Positions 3,422-49,094 of a DNA stretch of 56,483 nt are shown piece after piece. The notes beneath the pieces were generated by a model, which saw only the letters and a list, made by a program, of their open reading frames with translations, made no database searches and was not told the origin of the DNA. Every line of letters begins with the position of its first letter. Position 1 is the stretch's first letter. The position numbers and the translations under genes were made by a program. This DNA is from Patescibacteria group bacterium. GTDB lineage: Bacteria; Patescibacteriota; Microgenomatia; UBA1400; PJMF01. The stretch covers positions 1 through 56,483 of the forward strand of contig JAHDXH010000005.1 of NCBI GenBank assembly GCA_023382875.1, given 5' to 3'.

Positions 3422-3504
3422 AAATAATAGCCATCATCTTTCTCAAATGATTGGTGATTCATTCCTTCATCAACATCATTTTCGAAAAACGATGGCTATT
3501 ATTT
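3422..3504 (-). repeat. GA-mismatch hairpin element, copy A
   Basis: long imperfect inverted repeat with apex TGAT-GAAGGAATGA-ATCA; same architecture as 22312-22388 and 49020-49094. Confidence 0.8.
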
Positions 3505-3529
3505 ACTAAATTAATCTCCAAATTCTGCC

Positions 3530-4138
3530 TTATCCCTGTTCAAACTTTTCTGGATATAGCTGTCTTAGTGAAACAGAATTGGCATCTCTTTCGGAGATTA
3601 TAAGTTGTTCGTGACTAATTGGCCACTCGATATTCAAGTCAGTATCAAAAAGATTAATCGCTTTATCGCCAGCTTTATCACGATTAGCATAAAGTTCATC
3701 AACCAAATAAACATAATCAGCTGGACCTTCCAAAACCACAAAGCCGTTAGCGATACCCTGAGAAACAAATAAAGCGCCAGCCAAAGCCCCTTCACCACTG
3801 CCCAGCAAAAATTTGACGTGCTGACCAAAAGTGGGTGACTCGGGACGAATATCCACTAAAACACTCATCACTTTACCAGTTACCACCGTTATTAGCTTAT
3901 CCCAAGCTTCAGCGTGGAAACCACGAATGACATTAGTTTCTGAATGAGATAAGTTGACCTGCTTTGCCACAAAAGCTCGACCAGTTATTGCCTCCACCTC
4001 TGGAATTCTAGCGATTTCGGCATAAAAACCCCGGTGGTCAGCAAAAGCGTGGTGTGGCAAAAAATATAAACCCTCAAGCGGTGTTTTATAAACATCTTCA
4101 GCAATTTTAAGCTCTGGGGTGGGTTGGTAGGTCTGCAT
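3530..4138 (-). CDS. rfbC: dTDP-4-dehydrorhamnose 3,5-epimerase family
   Basis: DHRGFY, QVNLSHS, RGFH, VDIRPESPTFG, IEWP...S.RD cupin motifs. Confidence 0.85.
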   Translation of the reverse strand: MQTYQPTPELKIAEDVYKTPLEGLYFLPHHAFADHRGFYAEIARIPEVEAITGRAFVAKQVNLSHSETNVIRGFHAEAWDKLITVVTGKVMSVLVDIRPESPTFGQHVKFLLGSGEGALAGALFVSQGIANGFVVLEGPADYVYLVDELYANRDKAGDKAINLFDTDLNIEWPISHEQLIISERDANSVSLRQLYPEKFEQG

Positions 4139-4165
4139 ATATACGAGTATTCTATAATATAGGCA

Positions 4166-4948
4166 ATGATTATCAAAAACTCAAATCAAAGACATCAATA
4201 TTTTGAAGCTTGTCGCATCTCAGTTGAGATTTTAAAACAACTTTACGACCAAGTAGCTATTGGCGTTGTACCGATCGAAATCGACCAATTAGCAGGGAAA
4301 CTTTGTGAAAAATATGGTGTCAAACCAGCCTTTTATGCCGTCCAAGGCAAAAAGGGTATTTATGGTTATAACACCTGCATTCAGGTTAATGATGTGGCGG
4401 TGCACGGCATTCCTGATTCTGTTAATCCCATCAAGTCTGGCGACTTGGTTAGCATCGACTTTGGCATTATTTATGAGGGTCTTTATACCGACCACTGCGT
4501 AACGGTTGGTGTGGGTGAAGTTAGTGAGGCAGATAAAAAACTTTTGCGAGTGGGTCGAGAATCTGTTTTAAACGCTACCAAACAAGCTGTTACTGGCAAT
4601 CACACTGGCGATTTGGGCTATGTCATGGAATCACAAGCTCGCCAAGCAGGCTTTGATACGCTCAAGGAGTACATTGGCCATGGTATTGGCACTGGACTTC
4701 ATGATGAACCAGAAATCCCAGCCTACGGCCAACCACACACTGGCGATCCACTACACAGAGGTGAAGTCATTTGCGTTGAATCCCAAGTGGTAGCTGGTCA
4801 ACCAAAGGTTAAAACTGACGCCGATGGTTGGACAACTAGAACCAGAGATGGCGAAAATGCGGTGATGTTTGAGTTTATGGTCATGGTCGACAATACCAAA
4901 GGTATTATCATGACTCCCACCCAAGATTGGCCACTAATTAAAAAATAA
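4166..4948 (+). CDS. map: methionine aminopeptidase type I
   Basis: VHGIP, GDLVSIDFG, D..T, GHGIG..LHDEP, E metal ligands. Confidence 0.92.
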   Translation: MIIKNSNQRHQYFEACRISVEILKQLYDQVAIGVVPIEIDQLAGKLCEKYGVKPAFYAVQGKKGIYGYNTCIQVNDVAVHGIPDSVNPIKSGDLVSIDFGIIYEGLYTDHCVTVGVGEVSEADKKLLRVGRESVLNATKQAVTGNHTGDLGYVMESQARQAGFDTLKEYIGHGIGTGLHDEPEIPAYGQPHTGDPLHRGEVICVESQVVAGQPKVKTDADGWTTRTRDGENAVMFEFMVMVDNTKGIIMTPTQDWPLIKK

Positions 4949-4961
4949 GTTCAAAAGCAAG

Positions 4962-5288
4962 TTAACTTTTATCTGCTTTTTCCTCTTCAACTTCCAATTT
5001 TTGGAATTGACCACGGCGGTAGAGCACACCGATCACGCCATAAACAGCCAAATCGATAAATGTCTCTTCAATAGTTTCATTAGCAGGTTCGCCGCCAGTC
5101 ATTAAAAGGTTTTTAAGACGTTCAGCTTTTTCACTAATACGAAAGGCCATGCCTAACTCTTTGCCAGACAAAATGTTGCCTTTACCGTAATCTTTATGCT
5201 TTTTAAGAAACATTTCCAAAAGCTCAGCATTAACGTTTTCAAATGCTTGGTCTAATGTTTTTGGGGTAACGATCTTTGTTTTTGACAT
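4962..5288 (-). CDS. DUF1599/nucleotide-modification-associated all-alpha domain protein
   Basis: KKHKDYG...K.ERL..L...ET..D.AVY pattern typical of this family. Confidence 0.7.
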   Translation of the reverse strand: MSKTKIVTPKTLDQAFENVNAELLEMFLKKHKDYGKGNILSGKELGMAFRISEKAERLKNLLMTGGEPANETIEETFIDLAVYGVIGVLYRRGQFQKLEVEEEKADKS

Positions 5289-5316
5289 AAATATATATAA
5301 ACCGATCAGAATAAAG

Positions 5317-5344
5317 TTGACAAGTACAAAGTCCTTCGTAAAAT
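5317..5344 (+). promoter_or_regulatory. sigma70 promoter, leaderless transcript
   Basis: TTGACA-16 nt-TAAAAT, then 6 nt to ATG 5351. Confidence 0.7.
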
Positions 5345-5350
5345 ACTTCC

Positions 5351-5587
5351 ATGGTCGAAAAAAGAGAACGTAGATCGCCAGAATTTTATGTCTTAATTGA
5401 GTACGAAGCTCGATGTGAGTGCTGTGGTTTTGAGATTGCTGACGATCTTCAAGATGCCAATGAAAGAGATGGTATGGCCAATGTGCGCGCTATTTGTGAG
5501 GGCTGGCATTTCACCACCAACCGCATTGCTAATCACAACTGTAATGGCACCTTAACCATCATGACCAAAACTACTTATTGGGTTTAA
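5351..5587 (+). CDS. small putative zinc-binding protein
   Basis: CECC...WH...HNC ligand set; strong promoter directly upstream. Confidence 0.65.
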   Translation: MVEKRERRSPEFYVLIEYEARCECCGFEIADDLQDANERDGMANVRAICEGWHFTTNRIANHNCNGTLTIMTKTTYWV

Positions 5588-5600
5588 CTTTTTGAAAATG

Positions 5601-7106
5601 TTACTGGCCGCACTGATTTTTGAATTCCACCACAAATAAAGTGTAATCGACAATATTTACTTGGCCATCATCATTAAGGTCACTAACTTTTTGATTATTA
5701 TTTGCTGATCCAGCCAAAAGCTCAGAAACTAAGATTGTATAGTCAGCCAGATTGACTTTGCCGTCTTGATTGAAATCAGCTCGGCAAGCTGGCGCTGGCG
5801 TGGTAGAAGGTGTTGCTGACGGAGTTACTGATGGGGTTGCGTTAACAACGTTAGAAGATTTTTCCAAAGTAAAAACCTGCACTCCTGATTTTGCCACCAC
5901 ACCGCTCATATAATTATCGTTTCCAACTTTTTCCACCACTAAACTCTGACCGTAACGATCATCGTTGGCAAACAAAGGCTTAAAAGTACTCATGTCAAAG
6001 CCACTCGGCAATTTAATCTGATTTTTAGTTTCAAGATCAGATTGTGAGTTGGTATTTAGCACAATAATGAAAGCTTTGTCGCCATGAACAAAAGTGGCTA
6101 CATGCAAACGTGGTTTACCAAACACACCAGGAGTGGTGTCTTGATATGTATACTCACCATTCAAAATTGCCTCCACCAATTCACCATTAATGTCCTGTCT
6201 CAACTTTTTCCATTCAGTCCATAATTCTGTCTTGGTAGATAGATCGCCACTTTCCTCCCAGTATGAATAAGCCAAAATACCTTCCAATCTTGTAACTACT
6301 GCCGCCCAAGTCATGTTGCGAGTTTCCACTGGGTTTGGATAACGTTCACCACCCCAAGCAAATGCCTGCAAATTAGCAAAGACAGCTTTATTGGCTGGCG
6401 CTTGCTCGCGGGCATATTTTAAGTAGGCAAAATTTTCTTCCAATGGGGCATTAGCAAATGATTCATCATTGTTACCAATCGGATATGTTTGAGTGCCCAT
6501 AATATCCATTGCCTCATGATATTCGCCGAAAAGATATTTAGCCGACTGGCCAGATTTAAAAGGATAACCGCCCCCAGACCCATAAATAATTTGGGTGGCA
6601 CCATTGGCTTTGGCTGAATTTCTAACCACATCTGCTTCTTGCTTGGCTTGATCAGGATTAATGCGTGGATTAGAGTAGGGGACATTAAAATCATCCAACA
6701 CATTCCAGCCGATTAAGGTGAGCTCATCTTTGAACACCTGTGTCCATTTATCCAAACTAGGTTTGTAATAAGACGCAATAATGGTCATACCATATTTTTG
6801 CGCCTCCGCTCTGGCTTCCTGTGTACTTTTTTCTGCATCTGGACCAGTAATCACCAACTGCAAAATATTAAAGCCGGCTTCACCCATTTTTTTAACATCT
6901 TCAACCATACCTGCCCCGTAACGATTCTTAACATCAGAAACATGATAAAAACCAAAGGGATAAAAAGCCTGCCCATCTTTTTGCACCACGCCATCGTTTC
7001 TGATGGTGATAATCGGATTTGCAGCTCGAATTGATTTAGTGGAAACAAAAAAACCAGTTACTAAAAGAAGCAACAGCAGTGATTTAAAAAAGACTGCCTG
7101 TTTCAT
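5601..7106 (-). CDS. secreted glycoside-hydrolase-like protein with C-terminal dockerin
   Basis: signal peptide; FYPFGFYH/WNVLDD/YPI TIM-barrel-like region; Pro/Thr linker; duplicated DFNQDGKVNLADY / DLNDDGQVNIVDY Ca-binding loops. Confidence 0.75.
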   Translation of the reverse strand: MKQAVFFKSLLLLLLVTGFFVSTKSIRAANPIITIRNDGVVQKDGQAFYPFGFYHVSDVKNRYGAGMVEDVKKMGEAGFNILQLVITGPDAEKSTQEARAEAQKYGMTIIASYYKPSLDKWTQVFKDELTLIGWNVLDDFNVPYSNPRINPDQAKQEADVVRNSAKANGATQIIYGSGGGYPFKSGQSAKYLFGEYHEAMDIMGTQTYPIGNNDESFANAPLEENFAYLKYAREQAPANKAVFANLQAFAWGGERYPNPVETRNMTWAAVVTRLEGILAYSYWEESGDLSTKTELWTEWKKLRQDINGELVEAILNGEYTYQDTTPGVFGKPRLHVATFVHGDKAFIIVLNTNSQSDLETKNQIKLPSGFDMSTFKPLFANDDRYGQSLVVEKVGNDNYMSGVVAKSGVQVFTLEKSSNVVNATPSVTPSATPSTTPAPACRADFNQDGKVNLADYTILVSELLAGSANNNQKVSDLNDDGQVNIVDYTLFVVEFKNQCGQ

Positions 7107-7123
7107 AGAACAAGTAAATTTAA

Positions 7124-7558
7124 TTAACTAGCCAAAATTCCTTCAGCCCAAGTGGCGGCCTCGTTGACTCGGTCATCATCAATAAAACCATCGACTTTAT
7201 GTGGAGTACCAATCAAAGTAGCACCAAGTTCACGCAATTTAGCTTCAACTTTTTCTACAGCACCACAATAATGGATGTAACTAGTATCGCCAAGACCAAT
7301 CAAAGCAAAACGTCGACCCTCCACACCACTCAATTGATCCAAAAATTCTTCACATACCAAATTCATATTACCCTCATCCCAAGTTGAGGTAACAAAAATT
7401 ACCAAATCAAAATCTGCAAAATTTTCTCCTTTAGAGTTATCTGCATCTTTGACTTCAAATTGATGATCTGGATGAGCGGCAGCCATTTTTTCACTGAGTT
7501 GTTCGGATAACATGGCTGAGTTGCCACTCAAAGTTGCATAAAGGAATAAAATTTTCAT
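7124..7558 (-). CDS. flavodoxin
   Basis: YATLSGNS FMN motif, TSTWDEG, GLGDTSY..YCGA. Confidence 0.9.
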   Translation of the reverse strand: MKILFLYATLSGNSAMLSEQLSEKMAAAHPDHQFEVKDADNSKGENFADFDLVIFVTSTWDEGNMNLVCEEFLDQLSGVEGRRFALIGLGDTSYIHYCGAVEKVEAKLRELGATLIGTPHKVDGFIDDDRVNEAATWAEGILAS

Positions 7559-7698
7559 AATCCTATGGTACTGGAAACAGGACTTTTTGCAACTTATTAA
7601 CTTAAATAAGTAACTAATACATATTATGTGCTTGTTAAGCTTAATACGTAAAGATATGATTACCGACGTTGTTCGCTCTTACTAGGAGATCATTGAAA

Positions 7699-7890
7699 AT
7701 GCACTACGTAACTTACGGCGAGAAAACTGGTTTTGAAAATCGCACTCGAGGTTTTATTGGTGGCAATGGAGCCGACTCGAAAGCGAAATCCCTAATCGCG
7801 CAGGGTCATAAAATAGTCAGAGTGATGATGGGAAACCAGCTAGCTTGGGCTTACAACAATGGTGAGATTCACTACTATTCCAGACGGTGA
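7699..7890 (+). CDS. hypothetical protein
   Basis: AGGAG RBS upstream of ATG 7699; 63 aa. Confidence 0.55.
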   Translation: MHYVTYGEKTGFENRTRGFIGGNGADSKAKSLIAQGHKIVRVMMGNQLAWAYNNGEIHYYSRR

Positions 7891-7994
7891 CTCACTAGCA
7901 AACCACTAACAGCGGCATCGCTCACCAGCATGTCCGCTGTTTTTATAACTTCTTTTGGAGTCAATTTAGCCTTGGGGTATAATATAGCAGTCAG

Positions 7995-8068
7995 GCACCA
8001 GTAGCTCAGCGGATTAGAGCGCCAGTCTTCGGAACTGGGCGTCGGGGGTTCGAGTCCCTCCTGGTGCA
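7995..8068 (+). tRNA. tRNA-Arg(TCG)
   Basis: GCACCAG/CTGGTGC acceptor, CCAGT-CTTCGGA-ACTGG anticodon arm. Confidence 0.93.
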
Positions 8069-8115
8069 CTTTTTTGTCTGGCCATGATAAAATTGCTCCT
8101 TCTAAAGACACAAAT

Positions 8116-8189
8116 GGGTCAGTAGCTCAGTCGGTTAGAGCACCTGCCTCTTAAGCAGGGTGTCGAGGGTTCGAGTCCCTCCTGACCCA
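8116..8189 (+). tRNA. tRNA-Lys(CTT)
   Basis: GGGTCAG/CTGACCC acceptor, CCTGC-CTCTTAA-GCAGG anticodon arm. Confidence 0.95.
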
Positions 8190-8258
8190 CATTTAATCTC
8201 AATCTCCCTCCTTCACCAATATTTTTTCAGCTGTTAAGATGTTTATGAGGTAAAAAAC

Positions 8259-8915
8259 ATGACCAACTACGATCACGGCTATAAACCTAGTTACATCGAA
8301 GGACCGAAAGGCCAGCTTCAAGAAACTCACTTTGACACTAGAGAAATGCTTGATGCGGTTCGCGACCATTTTGATATGCCCATGGCCAAATTTTTCACCT
8401 CTGGTTTACCAGAGAGGGGAGTACCAGCGCTTTCAGAATTAATTTTTGCCGCTTTTTCCAGAGAACCTGAGCGCTATATTGTCGAAGGCCACTTGGATGC
8501 CATAACTTTAATTGGTGACGTTTTACCAGATACTTTTAGAGTTGCTGCAGAAAATGAAGTTTTTGACCCAAAACTGGCCAAACGGATTTTTGATATCGCC
8601 GGTAGTGAAGGCATTGATACTGCTATTAGCTACGTCTTTAATGCTAAACCTTTTGGACCAGACACCACTAACGAAGGTGGCAAACTCAATGTCGACAATG
8701 ATCGTTTTAAAAACGATGGCTTAAACCACCCTGACACTGGCGAAAAGCTTTATAAAATCTGTCCCGGCTTTAGAGTTGCACAAGCCATCGAAAGACAGCT
8801 CGTCACTGCTTTTAGAAAAATTTTAATCCATCCAGAAGTTCAGGATTTAGATGTCACCTTACCCCCAGGTGTTTCCGTGGGCGACAGATGCAAAGACATC
8901 GTCCAATCTCTCTAA
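8259..8915 (+). CDS. hypothetical protein
   Basis: 218-aa ORF with GAGGT RBS; no family recognised. Confidence 0.75.
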   Translation: MTNYDHGYKPSYIEGPKGQLQETHFDTREMLDAVRDHFDMPMAKFFTSGLPERGVPALSELIFAAFSREPERYIVEGHLDAITLIGDVLPDTFRVAAENEVFDPKLAKRIFDIAGSEGIDTAISYVFNAKPFGPDTTNEGGKLNVDNDRFKNDGLNHPDTGEKLYKICPGFRVAQAIERQLVTAFRKILIHPEVQDLDVTLPPGVSVGDRCKDIVQSL

Positions 8916-8934
8916 ACTGAAGCTGTTTTTGAGC

Positions 8935-9735
8935 TTAGTTGAGCAAGTATCCGCCATCAACCACTATCTGAACACCAGTCATATAACTAGACATATCAGA
9001 GGCAAGGAACAAAACTACTTTACCAATATCGTCGGGAACACCCATTCTACCCATTGGGACATCCATTTTTTGATACTCTGGGAAACGCTCGGTAGTATTT
9101 TGTTTACCACCACTTTGCATCGATACCACTCCTGGAGTTAAAATTCCACCTGGAGCAACACTAGTGACAGTAATATTATCCTTGGCTAGTTCCAAAGCAA
9201 CATTCTTCATAAAGCCAAAAACTCCGTGTTTTGAAGCATCATAATGGGCCAAACCAACACTGGATGGATGCAGTGAGTCAATGGAAGTAATATTGATAAT
9301 TTTTCCTCCCTGACCACGCTTTTTCATTTCTTCTGAGACGTATTTGGTCATCAAAAAGACACCACGCAAGTTGGTAGCAATCACTTTGTCGAAATCAGCG
9401 CTTGTCATTGAAGCCAGAGGGTTGAAGGGGAAAATACCAGCGTTATTAACCAAAATATCAATATGTCCGTATTGATCCAAAACATCTTTAACTAACTCTT
9501 GAACTTCATCTTCTTTAGACACATCAGTCGAGGCACCAGTAGCCTCCCAACCCTTGGCGATTAATTCTTCGGCAGTTTTTTGAGCTTCTTCCAATCTACG
9601 ACCAGCAATCACAACCCTTGCACCAGCCTCAGCCAAACGATAAGCAATTCCAAAACCAATACCCGCCGCCCCACCAGTCACAATCGCTACTTTACCTGAT
9701 AAATCGAGGAGCCCGGCATGGGATGTAATTTGCAT
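8935..9735 (-). CDS. short-chain dehydrogenase/reductase
   Basis: TGGAAGIG, LVNNAG, YDASK catalytic motif, VDGG C-terminus. Confidence 0.92.
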   Translation of the reverse strand: MQITSHAGLLDLSGKVAIVTGGAAGIGFGIAYRLAEAGARVVIAGRRLEEAQKTAEELIAKGWEATGASTDVSKEDEVQELVKDVLDQYGHIDILVNNAGIFPFNPLASMTSADFDKVIATNLRGVFLMTKYVSEEMKKRGQGGKIINITSIDSLHPSSVGLAHYDASKHGVFGFMKNVALELAKDNITVTSVAPGGILTPGVVSMQSGGKQNTTERFPEYQKMDVPMGRMGVPDDIGKVVLFLASDMSSYMTGVQIVVDGGYLLN

Positions 9736-9777
9736 ATTAACCTAAGGATAAACCTTTTTGGATCTTTGTGCCAATTA

Positions 9778-11028
9778 TTAGGACTTAAAAGGAGGTGTTT
9801 GACTACGATTTAAAAGTTTTGCCCATTTTTGCACCATAAAATTATCTCGCTGATGACCAGCGCTCACTGTAAATTGAAGTCTCTTGCCATCACCTCTCAC
9901 AAAAGGCTTGTCTTGACCATGCCACCAATTTTTTAGTTTTGTACTAACAAGACTAATCACATCACCAAAAGTTGAAGTGGTGACATCACTTATGCCTTTG
10001 CGGACAAAAACGCGTTCATCAACAGAGGAGGGAGAAGCCTGAGCAATTTTTAATGCCTCGCTTAGAGCAACTTGTTTTTTAAGAGCCAATTGCTCAAAGT
10101 CTTCGCTGGGAACCGATTGGTCGAATTTTTTACTTAAAAAAGGATTAAGTTTGGCCAAAAAACCACTTTCACCACCATAAAGCTGCCTATAAGATGGATT
10201 AGTCAAATAAATTCTAGCTGCATCCAAACCAAACCCTAGTGGTAATTGCAGCGCTCTTATCACCCTCAACAACCGATTCTTATATTGATGATCGGCGGGG
10301 TTGTCCAATAAAACTTGCATTTTAGCTCTCTCGTCATCACTTAAACAATCGAGCGTTTCCATCGCAACTAAAGCCCCCATCGAAATTCCATCCAAACGCA
10401 AATAATCTACCTCCGGTAAAATTTCCCCAATATAGTCAGCCACTTGCTCACCATGTGCCTTAAAACCATCGTTTTTAACTCGTTCATGCCATTCTGGAGT
10501 AACGTGACCCCAATCCGAGTTAGCTGAACCAAAAACTCGAACTTCAATTTCTGGCAAAGTTTCACCTCTTCTCCAAGCTCCGACTAAGCGTGGCAAGTCA
10601 GCATAAGCTTGTTGGTAAACGTAGTCCCATAAAGTAAAAGGGTGACCAACGGGTGGAGGAGAAATGCCTGGTAAAAATAAAGTGGTGCGTCGCTCTGGTT
10701 TTGTCGCCAGCTCAGCAAGGTCGGAGCCCACGGCAACCTCTCGGCGCGGCACTTTCCCAGCTAAAATTTTCTCAAACAGTCTAGTCACATTTACAACAGT
10801 GACGGGAAAATCGGCTTCAGGTGTCCTTCTAACTTCAAAGTTTTCAATACCTTGACGGTCGATTTCAGAGGCGATTTCGACTATTAATTCAGCTGATTCT
10901 GGAGCCTCCAACCTAGCTTTCTTTTCCACTATTTCACGAAAATGACTAAAAAAACTAGATTTTAGTGGCTCTGTTTCTTTAGCCTCCAAAACACCACGAT
11001 GGGAAAAGTTACGCTCTATTCCAGGCAT
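9778..11028 (-). CDS. hypothetical protein, probable alpha/beta-hydrolase fold
   Basis: FLPG oxyanion-like motif, GISMG nucleophile elbow, C-terminal AGH. Confidence 0.6.
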   Translation of the reverse strand: MPGIERNFSHRGVLEAKETEPLKSSFFSHFREIVEKKARLEAPESAELIVEIASEIDRQGIENFEVRRTPEADFPVTVVNVTRLFEKILAGKVPRREVAVGSDLAELATKPERRTTLFLPGISPPPVGHPFTLWDYVYQQAYADLPRLVGAWRRGETLPEIEVRVFGSANSDWGHVTPEWHERVKNDGFKAHGEQVADYIGEILPEVDYLRLDGISMGALVAMETLDCLSDDERAKMQVLLDNPADHQYKNRLLRVIRALQLPLGFGLDAARIYLTNPSYRQLYGGESGFLAKLNPFLSKKFDQSVPSEDFEQLALKKQVALSEALKIAQASPSSVDERVFVRKGISDVTTSTFGDVISLVSTKLKNWWHGQDKPFVRGDGKRLQFTVSAGHQRDNFMVQKWAKLLNRSQTPPFKS

Positions 11029-11304
11029 TTATTCCTGCGTCTCTTGTTTTTTACTATTCAAATAAGCCTGACGATATTCTTTGGGAGTAGTGGGGTAAAA
11101 AATTCCATGCTCAGCCAAATGTTTGAGCTCAATGTCTGTGGCTCGACCCGCTCTAGCGTGACGAATCATCCGGGTAAATTGAAACTTTTTCCACCAACCA
11201 ACTTCTTGGGCTGTTGCCTGAGTTTCTTCATCTTTTGGTAGGTCATCTTTGGCTCGGCCCTCAACTTGATTGATGAATTTTGCGTACTCTGGATTTCTAG
11301 CCAT
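11029..11304 (-). CDS. hypothetical protein
   Basis: start at MARNP, 9 nt after TGCTATAAT; abuts the next gene. Confidence 0.65.
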   Translation of the reverse strand: MARNPEYAKFINQVEGRAKDDLPKDEETQATAQEVGWWKKFQFTRMIRHARAGRATDIELKHLAEHGIFYPTTPKEYRQAYLNSKKQETQE

Positions 11305-11326
11305 ATGACAGAGATTATAGCAAAAC

Positions 11327-11353
11327 AAAAAGCCCAGTGATTTCTCACTGGGC
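11327..11353 (-). terminator. intrinsic terminator of the RRM gene
   Basis: GCCCAGTGA-GAAA-TCACTGGGC plus T-tract on the minus strand. Confidence 0.8.
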
Positions 11354-11386
11354 CCAAAATATTGCTATTTTAAGTGACTAAATAAA

Positions 11387-11773
11387 TTAGTCGCGGTAGC
11401 CACCACGGCCACCACCACGGTTGTAACCACCTCGGTCACCACCACGGTTATTGTCGAAGCGACGTGGTTTAAAACCACCTCTGTCTTCTCTTGGCACTCT
11501 TGGCTTAGCTACGTTAACCACCATGTCGCGACCATTGAGGTCACTACCATGAAGGGCTTCGATAGCGGCTTGAGCTGCTTCTTCAGTAGTATATTCAACA
11601 AAACCAAAACCTTTTGATCTTCCTGAAAACTTGTCAGTTAACAAACTGACATTCACTAATTCACCATATTGAGAGAACATCTCGCGGAGATCTTCTTCAG
11701 TGGTGCTGAATGGCAAATTACCAACAAAGAGTTTTTTGTTATTCACCTCTTCTGGTTGAAAATTGTCGTTCAT
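11387..11773 (-). CDS. RRM RNA-binding protein with Gly/Arg tail
   Basis: RNP2 LFVGNL, RNP1 KGFGFVEY, RGG tail. Confidence 0.93.
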   Translation of the reverse strand: MNDNFQPEEVNNKKLFVGNLPFSTTEEDLREMFSQYGELVNVSLLTDKFSGRSKGFGFVEYTTEEAAQAAIEALHGSDLNGRDMVVNVAKPRVPREDRGGFKPRRFDNNRGGDRGGYNRGGGRGGYRD

Positions 11774-12005
11774 AAATTTGGCTTCTTTTTAAGTAAAGAA
11801 GCGTCCTACTTCCGGCGCCGAACACTAACTCGAGCGATGTGCGCCTAATTAATACTACAATCTCTATTAATTTCTTAATCTGAAAAAGTGGAAAAATTCG
11901 ACTATTCGATAGGTGAAATATAACTTAGATTGAGCCTTCATTATACACCTCACTTGGGAAAATTGATAGTGGCAAAGCCAATTATCAAGGCTAAAATTAA
12001 CCGTC

Positions 12006-12362
12006 ATGATTTACACCTCCACCGTCCAAAAAGGCCAACAATTGGGCAGACAGATCAGTTTCCCAACACTCAATTTGGACCCTAATATTTTGCCCAGCAC
12101 ACAAAAACTTGGTGTTTACCAAGCCACAGTCATAGTGAATAAAAAAGAATATAAAGGTGTGTTATTTTTTGGACCCAAAAAAACCTTTGCGGAAATAACC
12201 AATGTTCTAGAAATCAACTTATTAGATTTTGATCAAGAGATTTATGGTCAAAGTGTATCTTTTACTTTAGGCAAATTTATTAGACCTGTTATCAAGTTTT
12301 CTTCTCTTGATGAACTTAAAAAACAAATCGCTAGAGACGTAAAGCTGGCTTGGCCAAATTAA
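12006..12362 (+). CDS. stand-alone riboflavin kinase domain
   Basis: G..LGR...FPTLN, GVY, E..LLDF..EIYG, FIR...KF.S..EL..QI..D; no FAD synthetase domain. Confidence 0.85.
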   Translation: MIYTSTVQKGQQLGRQISFPTLNLDPNILPSTQKLGVYQATVIVNKKEYKGVLFFGPKKTFAEITNVLEINLLDFDQEIYGQSVSFTLGKFIRPVIKFSSLDELKKQIARDVKLAWPN

Positions 12363-12374
12363 TTTTTTTCCTGA

Positions 12375-13280: not shown

Positions 13281-13343
13281 CGGCGCCAAGTATAACAAAT
13301 CAGGCACTCGATAAAATAGCCATTTTTTGATATAACCTCAAAC

Positions 13344-16271: not shown

Positions 16272-16273
16272 AC

Positions 16274-21763: not shown

Positions 21764-22102
21764 ATGGATCAAAATTACAAAAATTTAGTTTTTACCAAAC
21801 ACGCTTTGGAAAGATTGGGCGACAGAAGCATCTCAATGGATGCTATTTGGCAGACCGTTAGCCATCCGGATAAAAAGTTCAAAAACGATGGCAATAGCAC
21901 CAAATTTATTCGCAGAGTAAATGGCCGGAAAATTCATGCTGTAGCCACCTTTCTAAATAAAGAAAATAAATGGTTGGTTGTTTCTGTCTGGGTGAGGGGA
22001 GAAGATGACAAGCAACCTTTAGTCTGGCAAATTATTACCTTACCATTTAAAATCCTGTGGTGGCTTGTAAAAGCGATCTTTAAAACCCTGAGCAAAAATT
22101 AA
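21764..22102 (+). CDS. DUF4258-like protein with amphipathic C-terminus
   Basis: FTKHALERL..R.I motif, VVSVW strand. Confidence 0.6.
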   Translation: MDQNYKNLVFTKHALERLGDRSISMDAIWQTVSHPDKKFKNDGNSTKFIRRVNGRKIHAVATFLNKENKWLVVSVWVRGEDDKQPLVWQIITLPFKILWWLVKAIFKTLSKN

Positions 22103-22311: not shown

Positions 22312-22388
22312 AATTAGTAATATTATTTTTGAGTTGATCTTGATGAAGGATTGAGTCACACATCAATGAAAAAATAATATTACTAATT
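22312..22388 (+). repeat. GA-mismatch hairpin element, copy B
   Basis: 19-bp perfect basal stem, GA/GA, GTTGAT/ATCAAT, apex TGAT-GAAGGATTGA-GTCA. Confidence 0.8.
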
Positions 22389-22418
22389 CTCGATGTTAGT
22401 CTGGTGTATACTACCTTC

Positions 22419-23291
22419 ATGGACAGAAAACTCATTGTTACCCACCACGCACCAGATTTAGACGCCGTCGGCTCAGTTTGGATGCTAAAACGCTTTGACG
22501 CTCAAGATTTTGCCGATAGTCATTTAGCTTTTGTTAACCCAGGTGAACAAATCAGCCTCGCCGAAGCTGAAGAACAAGGTTTTCAACTTCATGAAGTTAC
22601 CCACGTCGATACCGGACTTGGTGAATTTGATCACCACCAGCCAGAACAAGCTGGACCTAACATTTGTGCCACTTCATTAGTTTACGACCACGCTTGTCAA
22701 ATTCATCCCGAATTAAGTGAAGACAAAGCTCTAAAAATTATTGTCAAATATATTACAGAAATCGACCACTTTGGTGAAATTTTTTGGCCCAATGCCAACG
22801 ACACCAAATATCACTTCATGATCCATGAATTAATTCGTGGTTTAGAGTACCTAGAGCCCCATAACGACGAGTCGCAGATGCAATTTGGGCTAACATGCCT
22901 TGATAGCGTTTATGCCGTTTTAACCCAGCACCTAAAAGCTGAAGAAATCATTGAAGAAAAGGGCGAGAAATTTAAGTTAAGTTTTGGGGAAGCGCTGGCG
23001 CTCGACACTAGAAACGACGACACTCTCAAAGTCGCTCAAAAAATGGGCTATGTCCTAGTTGTCAGAAAAGATACAAAGCTTGGCAATATTCGTATTAAAG
23101 TTCGTCCTGATGCCCCAATTGATTTGAAGCCCCTTTATGAGAAAGTTTTGAAAAATGATAAAACCGGTACCTGGTTTTACCATGCTAGCGGCAAGATGCT
23201 TATCAATGGCTCGGTCAAGCATAGAAGTCAAACTCCCAGTCCATTATCATTAACTCAAATAGTTGATTTAATCAAAGAAGTTTATGAATGA
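22419..23291 (+). CDS. DHH/MYG1-like phosphoesterase
   Basis: THHAPDLDA, VDTGLGEFDHHQ, CAT, IDH motifs; leaderless start 6 nt after TATACT. Confidence 0.7.
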   Translation: MDRKLIVTHHAPDLDAVGSVWMLKRFDAQDFADSHLAFVNPGEQISLAEAEEQGFQLHEVTHVDTGLGEFDHHQPEQAGPNICATSLVYDHACQIHPELSEDKALKIIVKYITEIDHFGEIFWPNANDTKYHFMIHELIRGLEYLEPHNDESQMQFGLTCLDSVYAVLTQHLKAEEIIEEKGEKFKLSFGEALALDTRNDDTLKVAQKMGYVLVVRKDTKLGNIRIKVRPDAPIDLKPLYEKVLKNDKTGTWFYHASGKMLINGSVKHRSQTPSPLSLTQIVDLIKEVYE

Positions 23292-28213: not shown

Positions 28214-28258
28214 AAATGTGCCTTTCACAAAAGACCAAAAGGGAGAGTTGGTTGTGCA

Positions 28259-28430
28259 AAATGCCTCTTTATTTTTGATCTCACGATCAACTTTTGAAGA
28301 CAAATTTAACGATGACACCACACCGAAGGGTTTCCGCAGATACTCAGCTCAAATTAGTTGAGCTGGTCCGATTGTGCTTCAAAGCACCCCTTTCCTCGTT
28401 TCCTAGTTTTCATCCTAGGCCACACGCCAT
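28259..28430 (-). ncRNA. glmS ribozyme-riboswitch (variant)
   Basis: in the glmS 5' leader: GGCGTGTGG-P1(CCTAG/CTAGG)-AACGAGG-AAGGG...ATCGG...TGCGG-CCCTT-CGGTG/CATCG-TTA, then P4 with CAAAA bulge and GTGA tetraloop; element order matches the canonical glmS RNA. Confidence 0.78.
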
Positions 28431-28493
28431 AATAATAATGAACTCATCTGCCATTTTGGCAAATAAATAACAATCACATCATAACACGGCGGA

Positions 28494-36544: not shown

Positions 36545-36592
36545 GCCTTTAGTATGGGGAAAGTTTGTCTTTTTGGCAAGACCTACAAAAAC

Positions 36593-36620
36593 AAAAAAAT
36601 CAGCTTTCGCTGATTCTTTT
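36593..36620 (-). terminator. terminator after rnpB
   Basis: AATCAGC-GAAA-GCTGATT plus T-tract. Confidence 0.75.
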
Positions 36621-36625
36621 GATGT

Positions 36626-36937: not shown

Positions 36938-36990
36938 AATAATTATATCCTATAATGATGGAAATATCAAGTTAAAAAAATCAAGAATAT

Positions 36991-38007: not shown

Positions 38008-38027
38008 ACTCTTTGAGTATAACAGCT

Positions 38028-39047: not shown

Positions 39048-39091
39048 GAAGATATTTTATCAAAGAAAATCTGAGCCAATAATGTGTCTAC

Positions 39092-39796: not shown

Positions 39797-39799
39797 ATT

Positions 39800-42412: not shown

Positions 42413-42439
42413 AGATACTAATCAGTATAATTCAGATAT
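42318..42439 (-). repeat. duplicated promoter plus N-terminus (second copy at 46092-46213)
   Basis: 122 bp with 5 mismatches, all synonymous. Confidence 0.9.
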
Positions 42440-42476
42440 TGCTTTCAGCACAACAACGGCAAAATAGGAAAAAATA

Positions 42477-45400
42477 TTAAGGACTTACCACCCAAACCAC
42501 CTGATAGCCAGTTTCTGGATTTTCCACCAAATCTGAATTAACTTCAAGAGGAGCGGTGGCTAAAATTACACCTCCAGAACTCTCCATATTTCTAATTTCT
42601 TCATCACTCAAAATGGTTACATTAATGTTTGAATCTGGTGGAACACCCGCTAATGTTGATTGAAGATCGTCATTAACTTCAATATTAAGATTTAGTGAGG
42701 TATCGCTACTAGAATTGGTTGGGTTAGAAATCAGTTGATAAAAGTCCAATCTGTTTGGCAACGGCAGAGTGAAGTTAAAGTCATCTTGCTGTACATTTAT
42801 TCCCATCATCTGACTTTGTGGTAAATCACTCGAATTACCATTCAAAGGTATATTTTCGTTTAATCTCGCTTGCTCGTTTGATAAAGAAACATCAAATGAT
42901 GCATCGGCAAAATTATCATAATCATAACTTCTAACTACCTGCCCGAAACTAACCATGCGATCAGGGGTTAAATTTTCACCACTTTCACTCCTTACTGTAA
43001 TATTGTAATTATAATTACTTGGTTTATAAAAGTTCCCTTCCTGCATGGTGCTCGTAATACCCTGAGCATTAGAAATGGCAACTTCAAAAGCTGACACATT
43101 TGTCAAACCAGCTGATGGATTATTCATAATGTCATCACCCCCAAAATTAGACGAACTCAGATTATTCCAACCAGATAAATATGTTGATGCGGGCACAACA
43201 TCACCACTTGAATTCATAACCACACTATCGTCAGTAATAAACGTTTCGTAATAATCACTTGGACCCAAGACATGAAGTTCTTCATGAATCAAGCCTGTGG
43301 CAACGGGCACGTTGTAAACCGAGTTACCAATATTAACGGGCTGAACTGTTAAGCCATTGACCATGGGGTCATTATCAAAGAAAAGCCAGTTCATATTTGG
43401 AGGCCAAGGGACTTCTTCACCACCAATCACCGCAGTTGGAATATTGGCTATACCAGACTTTGGTTGATGAAGAATTTGCTGATTAATTAGCTTGTCAGGA
43501 ACAACCACAATTCTAAGATTAATCGTAGATGGGACCAAAATTCCCCTTGCTCTAGCATCCTCCAGATTTTGAGTCATTGGATAAACATAAGTTAAATATT
43601 CCAAACCTACCAAAGACATATTTTCCAGACCATCGGAACAGGTACTACATTGTATTTGAACTCCATTTCTGTAGTCACTTTCACTCACCACAATTACACC
43701 ATTAAAATAATTGGCATTCATACCATCTCTTGCTTCGTTATATGCAGCAATAAACTCTGGATCATCAAAGTTATGACCTCCTGCTCTGTAATTTTCCTGC
43801 CATTGAGCATAAAGTTCTGGATTTGATTGCCACAACTCTGCAGCTACTTCTTCCCATGTATCAGCCTCAATTACAGTAGTATTTTCTCTAGCAATTTCAT
43901 CAAATTCCTCCAAACTATCTGCGCTCGCAAATGAATCATTCAAGCTAATTACTGAATCATTATTTCTAAGCTCTTCCACATTACTTGATCCATCAAGTAA
44001 TGGCCTAACCCAATTAGTTGGATTAATCACCAAATTTGTATTGTTATCATTATTTCCAAATAGATCTATACCAAAAGCTGAACCAACCTTGTCCAAAAAA
44101 GTCACCACCAAATTTTCTTTAGGTTGGTGTTTTTCCAATTCAGCATTTAAATTAGCGCACAAAACTGGAGATACTACAGCTCCAGTACAATATTGGTTGT
44201 AAGTATTTTGTGCTTCATCCAGAGTAATATCGCCACGGCTCAATAAAGATTGAGCAATTAAAACATCTCGGTTATTCATTCCAATTACCGTAGTTGGATT
44301 AACAATTTCATTGATTGGCTGAAGGACGTTATTAACAACGGTTTTACCAAGATTAATAATAAGCGCTAGGGGATTATCAGATGGATTTAAGACATATACA
44401 CCATCTTCCATTGAGCAACTATCAACCGCCGAGCTTTGTTGAGAAGCTTTATAGCAGTCAGCTAGTGTTTTATAACCGCCACCTTGACCTGCTGTGCGGT
44501 TGCATATAGATGATGACGCTTGTTCGACCGTTTGATCATCACAAGGATCTTCGAAAACCCTACCTCCATCGCCATCGTTAGCAATCTGCTCCTCTACAAC
44601 TTCGATTCGAGCTGATAAGCGACTACACATGGATGTAGATGTTTGTTGAGCTGTTGAACCAACACAGTAATCATCATAAACCCTTTGCGCATTTTCCAAG
44701 CTGCTAGACTCATCGCTAATTTGTGTAATGGCAGAACTAACCACACTGTTATTAACAGCCACAGCTTCTTCCAAAGCTTGCCAACGAACACGATTAGCTT
44801 CGTCACGCATTGCCTGAGTCAAACTTTCACAAGCACTGGTGGACGTGGTTCCATAATTAGCGCCAGCTGTTTCTGGGTTGCAGTAAGAATTGTAAACATC
44901 ATTGGCTTGAGCGTAGTCAAGATTTGATTGACCTAAAGCCATAGTTGTTTGAGAAACTTCATTAGTATTGGCATTTACCTTATCTTCCAAAGCTTGCCAA
45001 CGAACACGATTAGCTTCGTCACGCATTGCTGATTCCAAAGAATTACAGGCAGATGTAGAAGTATAGTTATAATTTGAACCTGCAGTTGATTGATTACAAA
45101 AACTATTAAAGGTTGCGCTGGCTGCAGCATAATCAATGCTCTGACCCTGCAAGCCGGTGACAGCTGCTGTCACAGCGTTCGTATTACCACTAACCTTTTC
45201 ATCCATAGCTTGCCAACGCATTTCATTTGCTTCCTCACGCAAAGAACTATCTAAAGAGCTACAAACAGATTTGTACTCATCCAACGGATTTTCACGACAG
45301 TGCTCATTGTAAACAGCTGAAGCTTGAGAATAATAATCCTTCCTTCATCCAATCCACCAATGGCTCTAGAAATTTCGTCGCGACCTTCTTGAACTGGATT

Positions 45401-46186
45401 AGACCACAATCCACCTTCGCAATGGCCAGATCCAGATGGACCTTCAACATCGCAAACCCATCGACCTTCATTATTACAATTACTACCCTCAACATATTTT
45501 CCGCACTGTCTGGTGCCGATATTGGCACTACAGGTAGGATCACAGCGACCATTTGTACACATCATTAGCCCTTCGCAACATTTTTCACCCACACCTGGTC
45601 TTGTGCCATTACCACCACAGCCAGTCACAGCGCATTCTTGGTCAATCCAGCGATTGCAAGTTTGAGTTGCTTTGCGGCAACCCGCAATACACCCACCGCA
45701 ATAAATCTCATCGCCCGCGCAGGCAGAGCCACCCCCACCAGAGGATGAGGAATTTTGTGCTCCAATTCCAGTAGTCCCACTATTAGTTAAATTATTAGTT
45801 GAACTATCTGCAGTATTGTTGGTGCCTGGATTTGACCAATAACCATTTTTACAAACTTGAATCACACCACCTCGATTATCTGATGCACCTTCAACCGCAG
45901 GCTCACCATTCCAATAAGTACATCCTGTAGCGCGCTGCCTAACATCTTGCTGAATCTGAGACAAAACCATAGCCGAGGCACCTCCGACCAACAAAAGAAC
46001 AAAAACAATGATGCCCATTAAAACTCTTAATGAGAAACGCTTTTTGGGCTTGATTAATGACAAAGGAACGGAGTTATCGGATAAAGTTGGCGAGGCTAAT
46101 TTTGCCTGATTGCGGCTCTGCCACACTTGCTCGTTCTTTTTTTTGAACAAGCTGTTCACGTTAGAAAAATGAACAAAATTAGCCAT
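42477..46186 (-). pseudogene. paralogous membrane-anchored repeat/zincin protein split by a 1-nt frameshift near 45333
   Basis: ORFs 45251..46186 and 42477..45284 join into one protein if one base is restored (GGLDEGRI[D]YSQASAVYNEHC); C-terminal LIHEELHVLGPSDYY. Confidence 0.7.
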
Positions 46187-46250
46187 AGATACTAATCAGT
46201 ATAATTCAGATATAATTCACCCTGCAATACTAGTTCCTAAAAAGGGTGAT

Positions 46251-47177
46251 ATGTATAAAGTAATTCTCCGCCACGAGCAAAATGAACCAATCCAACTTTT
46301 GAATGATTTTGTCCCTGATAGTTGGATTCACATGGAGGAACCCTCACTCAAAGAAATTGATACTTTAGTTGATCAATTTGAACTAGACCCATGGATTGTG
46401 GCTGATGCTCTCGACCTTTTTGAACTTCCTAGAATTGAAAAAGACGAAGACAAACTTTATTACTTTGCCCGTTATCCCATTTACACCCCAGAACTTGACC
46501 AAATCGGCACCGCACCGCTTTTGATCGTGATCGGGAAAAATTTCTTCATTACCATTTGTCCCAAGAAATTTGCCAATGTTTCCTTATTTGAAAAAGGAAA
46601 AATTGACTTTCAAACCAGCCAAAAAGCCAATTTGCTTGGCGAAATTCTTTCCACTATCGATGATGAATATGAAAGCTTGATTAAAAAACTCTCCAAGCAA
46701 ATCAAACAACAAGCTTCAAATTTTGAGAAAATCACCAACAAAAAAATTACCCAGTTCGTCAACTTTGAAAACGTCTTAGATGATTTGCTTTTTAGTCTCT
46801 ATCCAACTTCGATTACTTTGGGTCGCTTACTCAAAGGTCGCTTCATGAAATTGGGTGAAGAGGAAGAAGAACTCATTGAAGACTTGATCCAAAACAACGA
46901 ACAGTTAACTAAAATGTGTGAAAGTAATAGCAAAAGAGTGATTAATACGAGAGAAGCTTATGCCAATATTTTGTCCAACAACTTGAACAAAATTATGAAG
47001 CTTTTAACGGCCGTAACAGTTATTTTGACCATTCCTACTATGGTGTCAGGAATCTTTGGCATGAACGTCGCCATTCCTTTGTCTGACCATCCGCTGGGGT
47101 TCTGGATCATTATTGTTTCCACCGCTTTCTCAGCAATTGGGCTCTTCTTCTTCTTTTTACGACAAGATTGGATATAA
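46251..47177 (+). CDS. corA: CorA family Mg2+ transporter
   Basis: ELPRIE, LNKIMKLLT, GIFGMNV signature, two C-terminal TMs. Confidence 0.92.
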   Translation: MYKVILRHEQNEPIQLLNDFVPDSWIHMEEPSLKEIDTLVDQFELDPWIVADALDLFELPRIEKDEDKLYYFARYPIYTPELDQIGTAPLLIVIGKNFFITICPKKFANVSLFEKGKIDFQTSQKANLLGEILSTIDDEYESLIKKLSKQIKQQASNFEKITNKKITQFVNFENVLDDLLFSLYPTSITLGRLLKGRFMKLGEEEEELIEDLIQNNEQLTKMCESNSKRVINTREAYANILSNNLNKIMKLLTAVTVILTIPTMVSGIFGMNVAIPLSDHPLGFWIIIVSTAFSAIGLFFFFLRQDWI

Positions 47178-47188
47178 TCGTTTCACGC

Positions 47189-47265
47189 GCCGCGGTACCA
47201 GAGTGGTCCAATGGACAGGTCTGCAAAACCTCGTTTCGCGGGTTCGAATCCCGCCCGTGGCTCCA
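47189..47265 (+). tRNA. tRNA-Cys(GCA)
   Basis: GCCGCGG/CCGTGGC acceptor, AGGT-CTGCAAA-ACCT, U discriminator plus CCA. Confidence 0.92.
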
Positions 47266-47282
47266 TGTTATAATCTCCTCCT

Positions 47283-48266
47283 ATGTCGACAACAAAAGAA
47301 CCCAAAAAAACCTCTAAAAAGGCAGAAGCTCCTGAGCTTCTTATTGCCAACACTGAAATTAAAATTACTATCCCAATCGCTACCGCCAAAGAAGCTTATA
47401 AAAAAGCTTTGGCCAAATTAGCTCCCAAAGTCAAAACCGCTGGTTTTAGACAAGGCAAAGTTCCTACCCACATTGCTGAAGAATCAATTGGCCAAATCAA
47501 TATTATCGACCAAGCTTTGCAAGATTTAGTTCCAGATCTATACATCGAAGAAATCAAAAAATCAGGAAAAACTCCATTAACTAACCCAGACATTAAACCA
47601 ATCAAGCTCAATATGAACGAAGATTGGGAATTAGTGGCTGAGATCGCGGAAAAACCAGTTTTCAAGCTCGGTGATTACCAAAAAATCGTTAAGAGTGCCA
47701 AAAAAGACGCTGTTAAAGAAATCGAAGTAGAAGAAACCAAAGTTCATGATCACTCTCACGAACATGATGGCCACGACCATCCAGTGGAAAAACCAACCAA
47801 AGGTCATGAAGGCAAACACACTCACAAATTAACTGACAAGCAAAAAGAAGATTTGACCTTGAGTGTCATCTTCAAAAAATTGGTTTCAGAAATCAAGCCT
47901 CAAATTCAAGAACTTTTCCTTAGAGAAAAAGTCCGTGCCGAACTTAGAAGACTCGAGCAAGATCTAAAACAAGTTGGCATGACCCTCGATGATTATTTGG
48001 CCAAGCAACAAGTGACTTTCGAACAATTCTCTCAACAACTAGCTGTCATGCACCTTGGACAAGTTCAACTCGAATTCATTCTTCAAGAAATCATTACTGA
48101 AGAAAAATTGAGTGCCACTCCAGAAGAAATCTCAGCTAAAATCAAAGATATCACTGATAAGTTAGACAAAAAAGCTTTGCAAGACTTTGATGAAAAACAA
48201 TATCATCCTTACTTCGTGACTGTAATTGAACGAGATAAGGTAATTGATTTTTTACTCAAGTTGTAA
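47283..48266 (+). CDS. tig: trigger factor lacking the PPIase domain
   Basis: GFRQGKVP ribosome-binding loop and C-terminal chaperone domain joined by a His-rich linker. Confidence 0.88.
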   Translation: MSTTKEPKKTSKKAEAPELLIANTEIKITIPIATAKEAYKKALAKLAPKVKTAGFRQGKVPTHIAEESIGQINIIDQALQDLVPDLYIEEIKKSGKTPLTNPDIKPIKLNMNEDWELVAEIAEKPVFKLGDYQKIVKSAKKDAVKEIEVEETKVHDHSHEHDGHDHPVEKPTKGHEGKHTHKLTDKQKEDLTLSVIFKKLVSEIKPQIQELFLREKVRAELRRLEQDLKQVGMTLDDYLAKQQVTFEQFSQQLAVMHLGQVQLEFILQEIITEEKLSATPEEISAKIKDITDKLDKKALQDFDEKQYHPYFVTVIERDKVIDFLLKL

Positions 48267-48267
48267 T

Positions 48268-48296
48268 TTGACAATCTGGCGCAAATGTCCTATAAT
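48268..48296 (+). promoter_or_regulatory. consensus sigma70 promoter
   Basis: TTGACA-17 nt-TATAAT upstream of ATG 48321. Confidence 0.8.
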
Positions 48297-48320
48297 TCGC
48301 TAACTTTTAGTGATTAATTT

Positions 48321-49010
48321 ATGGATCCATTTGCTAAAGCACTCCAGTCGCAAAGCAAAGCTCGAACCGGTTACAAAGCTCCCACTCTGTCACCAGAACT
48401 CGAGAAAAATTTTAATTCCCAAAACTTGCCTCAAAACAGTGGTTTAAATCCATTTAGTGAAGCCTTAGCTCGCACTGGTGGTAAATCCGTCGCTGATTTT
48501 GGCAATTTTAATCAAAACATGTCTGAACAAGACATGGAACGCCAGCAAGAAGAACTTCTTAAAAAACAAAAAAAAGAAGCTTTACGCCAAAAACTTCACA
48601 AAGAAATCAACCCCGTTGATCTTTCTGAACTTTATTCAGCAGGGGAGAGACGTACTAAAAAACAACTCGAGGAAGTCAGAAAAGAACTTCGCATGTTTGC
48701 TCTTGAAGTAACCAAACTTTATAAAGAGGTTGATGTAGCTTTGTTCCAAGAAGTGGTTAATCCAGGTCAAACTGGTGTTGGTTTACGCGCTTACTTTGAC
48801 AAATTAAGAGAATTTATTAAACTTTTAAGACAAAAAGTTCATTCCGCTCGAACTTGGCTCAATGTTCAATCGAACAAATCCAAGAAAAAACGTGCCGCCA
48901 AAGGTAACAATCGCACTGGTATTGAAATTAGTGGTCAAAGCCACGAGCAGACTAAAGCTGTTTTTGACCAGATGCACCACGAGCAATCATCGTCTTATAC
49001 AGGTGGCTAA
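48321..49010 (+). CDS. DUF5660-like CPR protein
   Basis: coiled coil then PG..G....YFD.L..FI..L..KV.SA.TWL...KKK pattern (recognised from memory, not searched). Confidence 0.6.
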   Translation: MDPFAKALQSQSKARTGYKAPTLSPELEKNFNSQNLPQNSGLNPFSEALARTGGKSVADFGNFNQNMSEQDMERQQEELLKKQKKEALRQKLHKEINPVDLSELYSAGERRTKKQLEEVRKELRMFALEVTKLYKEVDVALFQEVVNPGQTGVGLRAYFDKLREFIKLLRQKVHSARTWLNVQSNKSKKKRAAKGNNRTGIEISGQSHEQTKAVFDQMHHEQSSSYTGG

Positions 49011-49019
49011 AATAATCAA

Positions 49020-49094
49020 AAAATATTTAGTCTTTTGAGATTGATCTACGATGAAGGATTGAGTCTGAATCAATCGAAAAAGAGAAAATATTTT
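49020..49094 (+). repeat. GA-mismatch hairpin element, copy C
   Basis: TCTTTT-GA-GATTGAT...GAT-GAAGGATTGA-GTC...ATCAATC-GA-AAAAGA. Confidence 0.8.

Follow-up and report, generated by a model that had tools for sequence, protein, structure and literature searches.

A family of covarying intergenic hairpins with a conserved purine-rich tip, confined to one patescibacterial species pair

Introduction

Short imperfect palindromes that lie between genes, near gene ends and in either orientation, form lineage-specific families in bacteria, as in the repetitive extragenic palindromic (REP/BIME) elements and the REPIN elements with their RAYT transposases, and REP elements can serve as barriers at the 3′ ends of messenger RNA (mRNA). 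Repeats of the ERIC/IRU, Correia and BOX types are transcribed intergenic hairpins that are sometimes processed or affect mRNA stability. RNase III hairpins of the phage T7 type are long intercistronic hairpins with conserved internal loops, present at about ten per genome, and their processing leaves a protective 3′ hairpin. Integron attC sites are sequence-variable hairpins at gene 3′ ends that are read as a folded single strand through unpaired features, and intrinsic terminators are hairpins just past stop codons. Here we describe a hairpin family that has likenesses to all of these, three copies of which lie on a 56,483-nucleotide contig of a Patescibacteria group bacterium (JAHDXH010000005.1, hereafter the window). 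In kind it resembles REP, ERIC or Correia; its architecture is new, and it is not a widespread RNA class.

Genomes of the small symbiotic or Candidate Phyla Radiation (CPR) type are, to our knowledge, thought to hold very little repeated or mobile DNA, and we know of few lineage-specific non-coding elements in them. A preliminary description of the window had reported three dispersed hairpins, copies A, B and C, with tandem GA mismatches and a common apex. The analysis reported here extends to the whole genome, its sister species and its relatives.

Results

A hairpin family in one genome and its sister species

The genome comprises 1,008,149 bases in 29 contigs (39% G+C, 96.9% complete), one of which, C5, is the window. 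Searching by motif and by covariance model gave exactly the same number, 11 copies, scoring 63.7-77.4 bits, with three each on contigs C3 and C5, two on C4 and one each on C1, C6 and C16; copies A, B and C are thus three of eleven, and the further copies sought after the preliminary description do exist. When metagenomes were scanned, true copies were found solely on contigs 85-92% identical to the genome, which represent a sister species with six copies across four contigs, plus one duplicate. Wastewater and sludge samples contain both the species and its sister. The combined set of 17 sequences (11 from the genome and six from the sister species; 16 distinct) was used in the comparisons of structure.

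The covariance model gave no real match among 60 relatives (one of the same genus, 35 from other genera of the family and 24 from the order), so that the idea of a family common to CPR genomes was not borne out. A single 25-bit match in one relative (G042) had neither the tip nor the fold, and at a relaxed threshold (E<=10) the five nearest genomes gave 13 weak matches, none of the ten inspected being real. The same-genus genome (G001), which is 71-79% identical over the compared stretches, holds no copy. A 20-mer scan of one genome from each of 185,579 species gave five matches, about the number expected by chance, which contained only the tip part of the model, and none of 25 IMG/VR loci held a full match having the fold. 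Against Rfam 15, only transfer RNAs (tRNAs) and glmS were matched in the window at the gathering score, and at E<=10 seven further loci gave scattered chance matches of the microRNA and small nucleolar RNA (snoRNA) type, none recurring. The element had been presented as undescribed, and this stands: no Rfam family matched it, and no description of such hairpins was found in the titles and abstract openings covered by a literature search. The genome is without any other large hairpin family. The family is real, structured and undescribed, and it is confined to one species pair.

Core architecture and covariation

What is conserved is a core about 53-70 nucleotides (nt) long, in which about five T-rich/A-rich base pairs are followed by a symmetric GA/GA mismatch (sometimes AA/GA), a helix of 6-7 bp, a small asymmetric loop by which two subtypes are distinguished, a helix of 3-4 bp (GAU/RUC) and the tip, a 10-nt purine-rich GAAGGAWTGA. 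The tip is about 90% identical between copies, its AAGGA being invariant in 17/17; the mismatch and the TGAT/ATCA at the top of the middle helix are likewise invariant or nearly so, and the closing GAU/RUC is replaced once, by a compensated GAC/GUC. Outside the core, long arms bring the total to 28-37 pairs per copy, and these arms differ from copy to copy and are mutually unrelated.

Pairing was present in 97.9% of 239 cells of the modelled helices, with both-sided changes at 12 of the 15 pairs. The covariation score was matched by none of 500 shuffles, controls in which the partner was slid paired in 27-57% of cases, and RNAalifold independently gave the same helices.

The tip of every copy (for example window 22340-22354) can be read as a start codon, Lys, Asp or Glu and a stop, and copies that have lost the ATG of the tip carry TTG or GTG in frame just before that point; this is probably chance. 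The three-codon frame and the short frames that start in the core were set aside as chance results of conserved DNA. Self-cleaving ribozyme cores, compared by eye, gave no fit.

The folded strand

The GA-bearing strand (GA strand), on which the tip reads GAAGGAWTGA, was more stable than its complement in all 17 copies, the GA mismatches themselves contributing part of the difference. More informative is the asymmetry between wobbles and their complements: read on the GA strand, the basal stems hold 18 G.T against one A.C (binomial p 8e-5; orthologous pairs are non-independent), and the modelled core pairs hold 14 G.T against one A.C, a count that shares five inner basal pairs with the first. 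Tip polarity thus predicts which strand tolerates wobbles in stems that are unrelated in sequence. The pattern points towards single-stranded folding of that strand, whether as RNA or DNA, and towards selection that still acts in place. The fold is strongly supported, the GA strand is the strand that folds, and the earlier proposal of selection on a single-stranded fold, for which a covariation check had been suggested, is backed by both the covariation and the wobble asymmetry.

Change between the genome and the sister species

Two orthologous copies are near-identical in the two species. At C3:38841, all seven middle pairs and the tip helix have changed and are fully compensated (GACTAAC/GTTAGTC against AGTCAGC/GCTGACT in the sister, and GAC/GTC against GAT/ATC), and the invariant letters of the tip are kept. 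The basal stem at C3:38693 shows two fully compensated changes between orthologues. The copy that follows rpoD is inverted in the sister species, where it lies about 24 nt further from the stop codon and has different outer arms; read in the GA frame, its inner basal stem is common to both species, including a purine-purine mismatch followed by a G.T wobble. In a relative from another sample, the stretch at the rpoD site is replaced by 126 other letters. Two of the six sister copies have no counterpart in the genome, and for four of seven pattern-matching copies of the genome no sister contig turned up. Private copies, an inverted orthologue and a replaced stretch together make the family a dynamic one.

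An empty-site check of one sister copy (L028) against contig C10 of the genome gave an alignment that was not significant (p 0.19 and 0.12), so that no insertion boundary can be claimed, and no target-site duplication was seen. The rpoD-tRNA spacer of the same-genus genome holds no hairpin and is too diverged to polarise the events, and that genome gave no DNA match to the end of the giant gene described below.

A gene for a DUF2326 protein lies beside a tRNA gene (C4 15730-17472, minus strand). This stretch of about 3 kb is replaced in the sister species by about 1.6 kb of other DNA and looks like a variable island beside the inverted hairpin.

Gene neighbourhood and orientation

All 11 copies are intergenic and lie beside unrelated housekeeping genes, and no common functional theme was found among the neighbours, which include genes for NUDIX, phosphoglucomutase, NDK, YbeY, RpoD, SSB and S18, pilins and a methyltransferase. 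The preliminary description had the GA strand always sense to the upstream gene. This held for A, B and C in the window and failed genome-wide: six copies are sense (A, B, C, C3:73927, C4:13837 and that on C16), three are antisense and two ambiguous; in addition, one orthologue has the opposite orientation in the sister species. Those copies present in the sister alone are sense to an adjoining gene. Judged by GC skew, five copies are leading and six lagging, so there is no bias with respect to replication.

It had also been stated that the hairpins lack the GC stem of ordinary terminators. Most copies do, the exceptions being those at C3:73915-73991 and L025, in which the base contains GC and is flanked on both sides by A and T runs, resembling bidirectional terminators; the GC stem followed by a T run that marks an intrinsic terminator was thus read in 2/17 copies and is not a property of the family. 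Promoter and terminator scans near copies A and B stayed at background level, and no terminator was called at either.

The C16 copy is on the strand of the 16S rRNA gene, 219 nt beyond the gene's 3′ end. The order there (C16 up to 6502, plus strand; L016:1-1282) is the 16S rRNA end, a terminator-like hairpin, the GA-hairpin and a convergent pilin gene; because the pilin gene comes after the 16S rRNA end, no 23S gene follows. A 114-residue open reading frame (ORF) listed opposite the 16S rRNA region is spurious. Two GA-hairpins elsewhere in the genome abut tRNA genes, and a neighbouring gene for a DUF5660 protein is a tentative pointer to a Woesebacteria-like CPR lineage.

The three copies of the window

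Three long hairpins were confirmed at the coordinates and strands given in the preliminary description, which also had their middle stems right, with GA flanking each on both strands. Copy A occupies 3422..3504 (minus strand) and has 14-bp perfect outer arms plus inner stems. Its conserved 53-nt core, at 3437..3489, matches the covariance model with 72.2 bits and consists of the tandem GA (3483-3482 and 3444-3443), the middle stem AAATGAT/ATCATTT and the apex (3471-3456). Copy B (22312..22388, plus strand) has 19-bp perfect outer arms and a core at 22324..22376 (63.7 bits) with GA at 22331-22332 and 22368-22369, the middle stem GTTGAT/ATCAAT and the apex at 22342-22357. Copy C (49020..49094, plus strand), whose right arm reaches the stop codon of the convergent gene 49093-49866, has its core at 49031..49083 (70.4 bits) with GA at 49037-49038 and 49076-49077, the middle stem GATTGAT/ATCAATC and the apex at 49050-49065; it belongs to the subtype with a 4-nt 5′ loop and a TGA 3′ loop.

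Folding energies of A, B and C were -38.2, -27.9 and -20.8 kcal/mol (z -7.6, -6.0 and -3.1), far better than shuffled sequence, with 0/200, 0/200 and 1/200 shuffles, respectively, folding equally well. Within the window the 16-base apex pattern was counted three times, whereas 100 shuffles gave an expectation of 0.00. From the upstream stop codon to the 53-nt core the gaps are 40 nt (A), 221 nt (B) and 20 nt (C). An ordinary GC-rich terminator-like hairpin lies about 50 nt before copy B, whose upstream gene (21764-22102, plus strand) encodes a DUF4258 domain. Outside their unrelated arms, copy B (22385-22395) and the C6 copy (about 10925-10935, minus strand) have the same right flank of about ten bases.

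Elsewhere in the window, eight tRNA genes lie at 360-548, 1621-1993, 7995-8189, 47189-47262 and 49892-49965, and the glmS ribozyme/riboswitch match at 28249-28439 (minus strand) scored 51.9 bits against a gathering score of 37.

Outer arms

The arms reach or enter the stop codons of rpoD, a pilin gene, a giant ORF (see below) and a methyltransferase gene, or come to within 3 nt of a tRNA end. Between copies the basal arms are unrelated, and they had no significant match elsewhere in the genome, which speaks against a guide-like role of the stems.

At least one outer arm is of local origin. At C3:38841, one arm includes the 11 nt that form the final codons and stop of a giant ORF (C3 38897-54904, minus strand; 5,335 residues), and the opposite arm is complementary at ten of the 11, a match that is partly an 8-base self-reverse-complement sequence. 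The C-terminus of the protein, ending WW-(I/L/V/M)-(V/I/L)-N, is shared by 49 of 51 homologues and is also present in other genera, at 13 loci where no such hairpin occurs. Since the C-terminus is kept where the hairpin is absent, this arm predates the hairpin; it is the opposite arm that arose as a match. The second arm may have come from inverted copying, or there may have been an insertion into an older hairpin. The homologues of the giant ORF are 2,940-7,758 residues long, carry a precomputed label of an integrase SAM-like N-terminal domain and nearly all end in the same seven residues.

Candidate partners, transcription and Shine-Dalgarno words

Partner proteins were sought by family over the 96.9% complete genome. 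No match was found for CsrA (PF02599), the L7Ae family (PF01248) or the Y1/RAYT transposase (PF01797), for which the same searches were positive in three, seven and six control genomes, respectively, nor for reverse transcriptase (RVT_1) or the TnpB zinc ribbon. Two tyrosine recombinases (genes with a Phage_integrase domain) are present. Sequencing runs that contain this DNA were identified. One contig from an RNA library, identical to the genome, spans L069 2993-3271, that is, the C4:15496 hairpin and the adjoining tRNA; the contig shows neither strand nor transcript ends, and the library possibly contained DNA.

The centre of the tip, AAGGA, is the commonest Shine-Dalgarno-like 5-mer of the genome (40 of 634 start regions against 6.5 expected) and can pair with the 3′ tail of the genome's 16S rRNA; AAGGA and AGGAG are about six-fold enriched before starts. 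Many genes carry, in place of such a word, a -10-like box immediately before the ATG. The most enriched words 4-20 nt before the ATG of long ORFs resemble -10 boxes (GTATA, TATAC, TATAA and ATAAT; for example window 22405-22421), which suggests that many mRNAs are leaderless or have very short leaders.

Discussion

Comparison with described elements

From REP elements the family differs in reversing their pattern: the stems are unique to each copy and the tip is conserved, so that the stem conservation of REP is not found. There are 11 copies rather than hundreds, and no Y1/RAYT gene was found. ERIC, Correia and BOX-type repeats align over their full length and have conserved terminal repeats, whereas here the arms covary or are unrelated. 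Miniature inverted-repeat transposable elements would have conserved rather than covarying inverted parts, and the target-site duplication expected of them was not seen. Sites of the T7 type are all sense within one transcript; here 3/11 copies are antisense. In attC sites the base is conserved and the tip variable, the opposite of what is found here, and the genome shows no cassette arrays, its two tyrosine recombinases being of unassigned type. Likeness to intrinsic terminators extends to the two copies with a GC-containing base and A/T runs, but most copies are AT-rich, have 28-37 pairs and lack a T run, and in two cases an ordinary terminator-like hairpin precedes the copy.

A reading as a structured repeat at transcript ends

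The reading that we favour, tentatively and with a little less than even confidence, is that of a young, lineage-restricted, REP/ERIC-like structured intergenic repeat, foldable as a single strand, most likely as RNA at transcript ends, with outer arms drawn from local sequence. Under it, selection would keep the element foldable on one polarity, that of the GA strand. The acting molecule would be an RNA hairpin at transcript ends or between cistrons, forming a stable barrier or a hairpin of the terminator type. Its tip could present AAGGA, the commonest Shine-Dalgarno-like word, to a factor, whether the 30S subunit or a protein. Processes that act on DNA palindromes, such as template switching and arm-arm recombination, may copy and flip the element and lengthen its arms.

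Several observations weigh against this reading. Three of the 11 copies (C1:109463, C4:15496 and C6:10954) are antisense to both neighbours, and the two ambiguous ones stand back to back in a convergent gap, each pointing away from the nearer gene; with such antisense or away-facing orientation, the known transcripts there would hold the complementary strand. Copies B and C16 come after ordinary terminator-like hairpins and may therefore be little transcribed. No partner protein was identified in the family searches. The restriction to two sister species, together with the apparent turnover, fits a selfish repeat better than a regulatory RNA, and compensatory changes in a DNA palindrome can also come from templated correction between the arms, without selection on RNA.

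Among the alternatives, most weight goes to a mobile element, non-autonomous and acting as a hairpin folded from single-stranded DNA, its tip and GA mismatches being read by an enzyme encoded elsewhere or unassembled, and its arms being generated or captured at insertion. Orientation that is random to transcription (6/3/2) and to replication agrees with it, as do the presence in one species pair only, the differing copy sets, the inverted and slightly displaced copy at rpoD and the unique, local outer arms, and DNA hairpins also tolerate G.T wobbles. Nevertheless, Y1/HUH transposases, reverse transcriptase and TnpB were not found, leaving just two tyrosine recombinases; neither a target-site duplication nor a clean empty site was seen, the sole candidate alignment having p 0.19; the lagging-strand bias known from single-strand transposons is missing; and the removal after insertion of A.C and not of G.T needs selection in place. 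We regard this main rival as somewhat unlikely. A family of functionless DNA palindromes, with a tip conserved by youth, pairing kept by templated repair between arms and orientation that flips freely, would accord with the very narrow distribution, the inverted orthologue and the failure to find a partner in the family searches or a theme among the neighbouring genes. It is decidedly less probable again, because basal stems that share no sequence, beside a tip that is about 90% identical, indicate that the copies did not arise simply by recent duplication of entire hairpins. Templated correction would also wipe out the GA/GA mismatches and asymmetric loops and would not yield an 18:1 bias of G.T over A.C tied to the polarity of the tip, and the invariant tip positions survive 13% genome divergence, even where every stem pair has changed.

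The remaining alternatives name a particular partner or act on duplex DNA, and each is far less probable. Tandem G.A pairs could form a kink-turn for an L7Ae-type protein, as in box C/D-like ribonucleoprotein sites: 4/17 copies, those in which TGA adjoins the middle stem on its 3′ strand, allow a drawing with a bulge followed by G.A/A.G, and there are weak, non-significant Rfam matches to C/D snoRNA models. In the other 13 copies the non-bulged strand has variable letters at the place beside the helix where a conserved GA should stand, the basal GA/GA mismatch is symmetric and bulge-free, and no L7Ae-family gene was found, which makes this very improbable. We give equally little credence to a site on duplex DNA for a DNA-binding protein, or a small invertible switch. 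The orientation-free distribution, four TTGA(T)-type words in the core and the locus inverted between species would suit it, but the covarying stems, the G.T mismatches without A.C and the need for long unique arms are left unexplained, and the flipped segment is far shorter than known switches. Least credible is the suggestion, made in the preliminary description, of a CsrA/Rsm-type binding hairpin: all 17 tips carry the AAGGA word in an exposed loop, placing GGA in a loop as such sites do, yet the genome has no detectable CsrA gene, and the hairpins offer one site each, do not overlap start sites and are of mixed orientation.

Implications

The family combines a fixed tip and fixed mismatches with freely changing stem pairs, with a clear signature of which strand folds and with arms built locally, up to adjoining stop codons. 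Its general importance is limited because its distribution is narrow. Should the favoured reading of an RNA at transcript ends be true, the element would be a small module for transcript ends, portable and with a defined surface for recognition; should the DNA reading hold, it would be a mobile hairpin that has no known transposase. Under either, the family supplies a concrete 53-nt model for probing, pull-down and population work. A more speculative idea, which we consider rather improbable, is an enzyme-less element that makes its own palindrome: the core of about 55-70 nt alone would be copied, would gain its stem by inverted copying of the flank up to coding sequence, and would persist as a one-strand hairpin that serves the cell, for instance by capping transcript ends and binding the 30S subunit or a protein there. 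If true, such a self-palindromising core would be a new route for the spread of structured RNA or DNA modules in tiny genomes.

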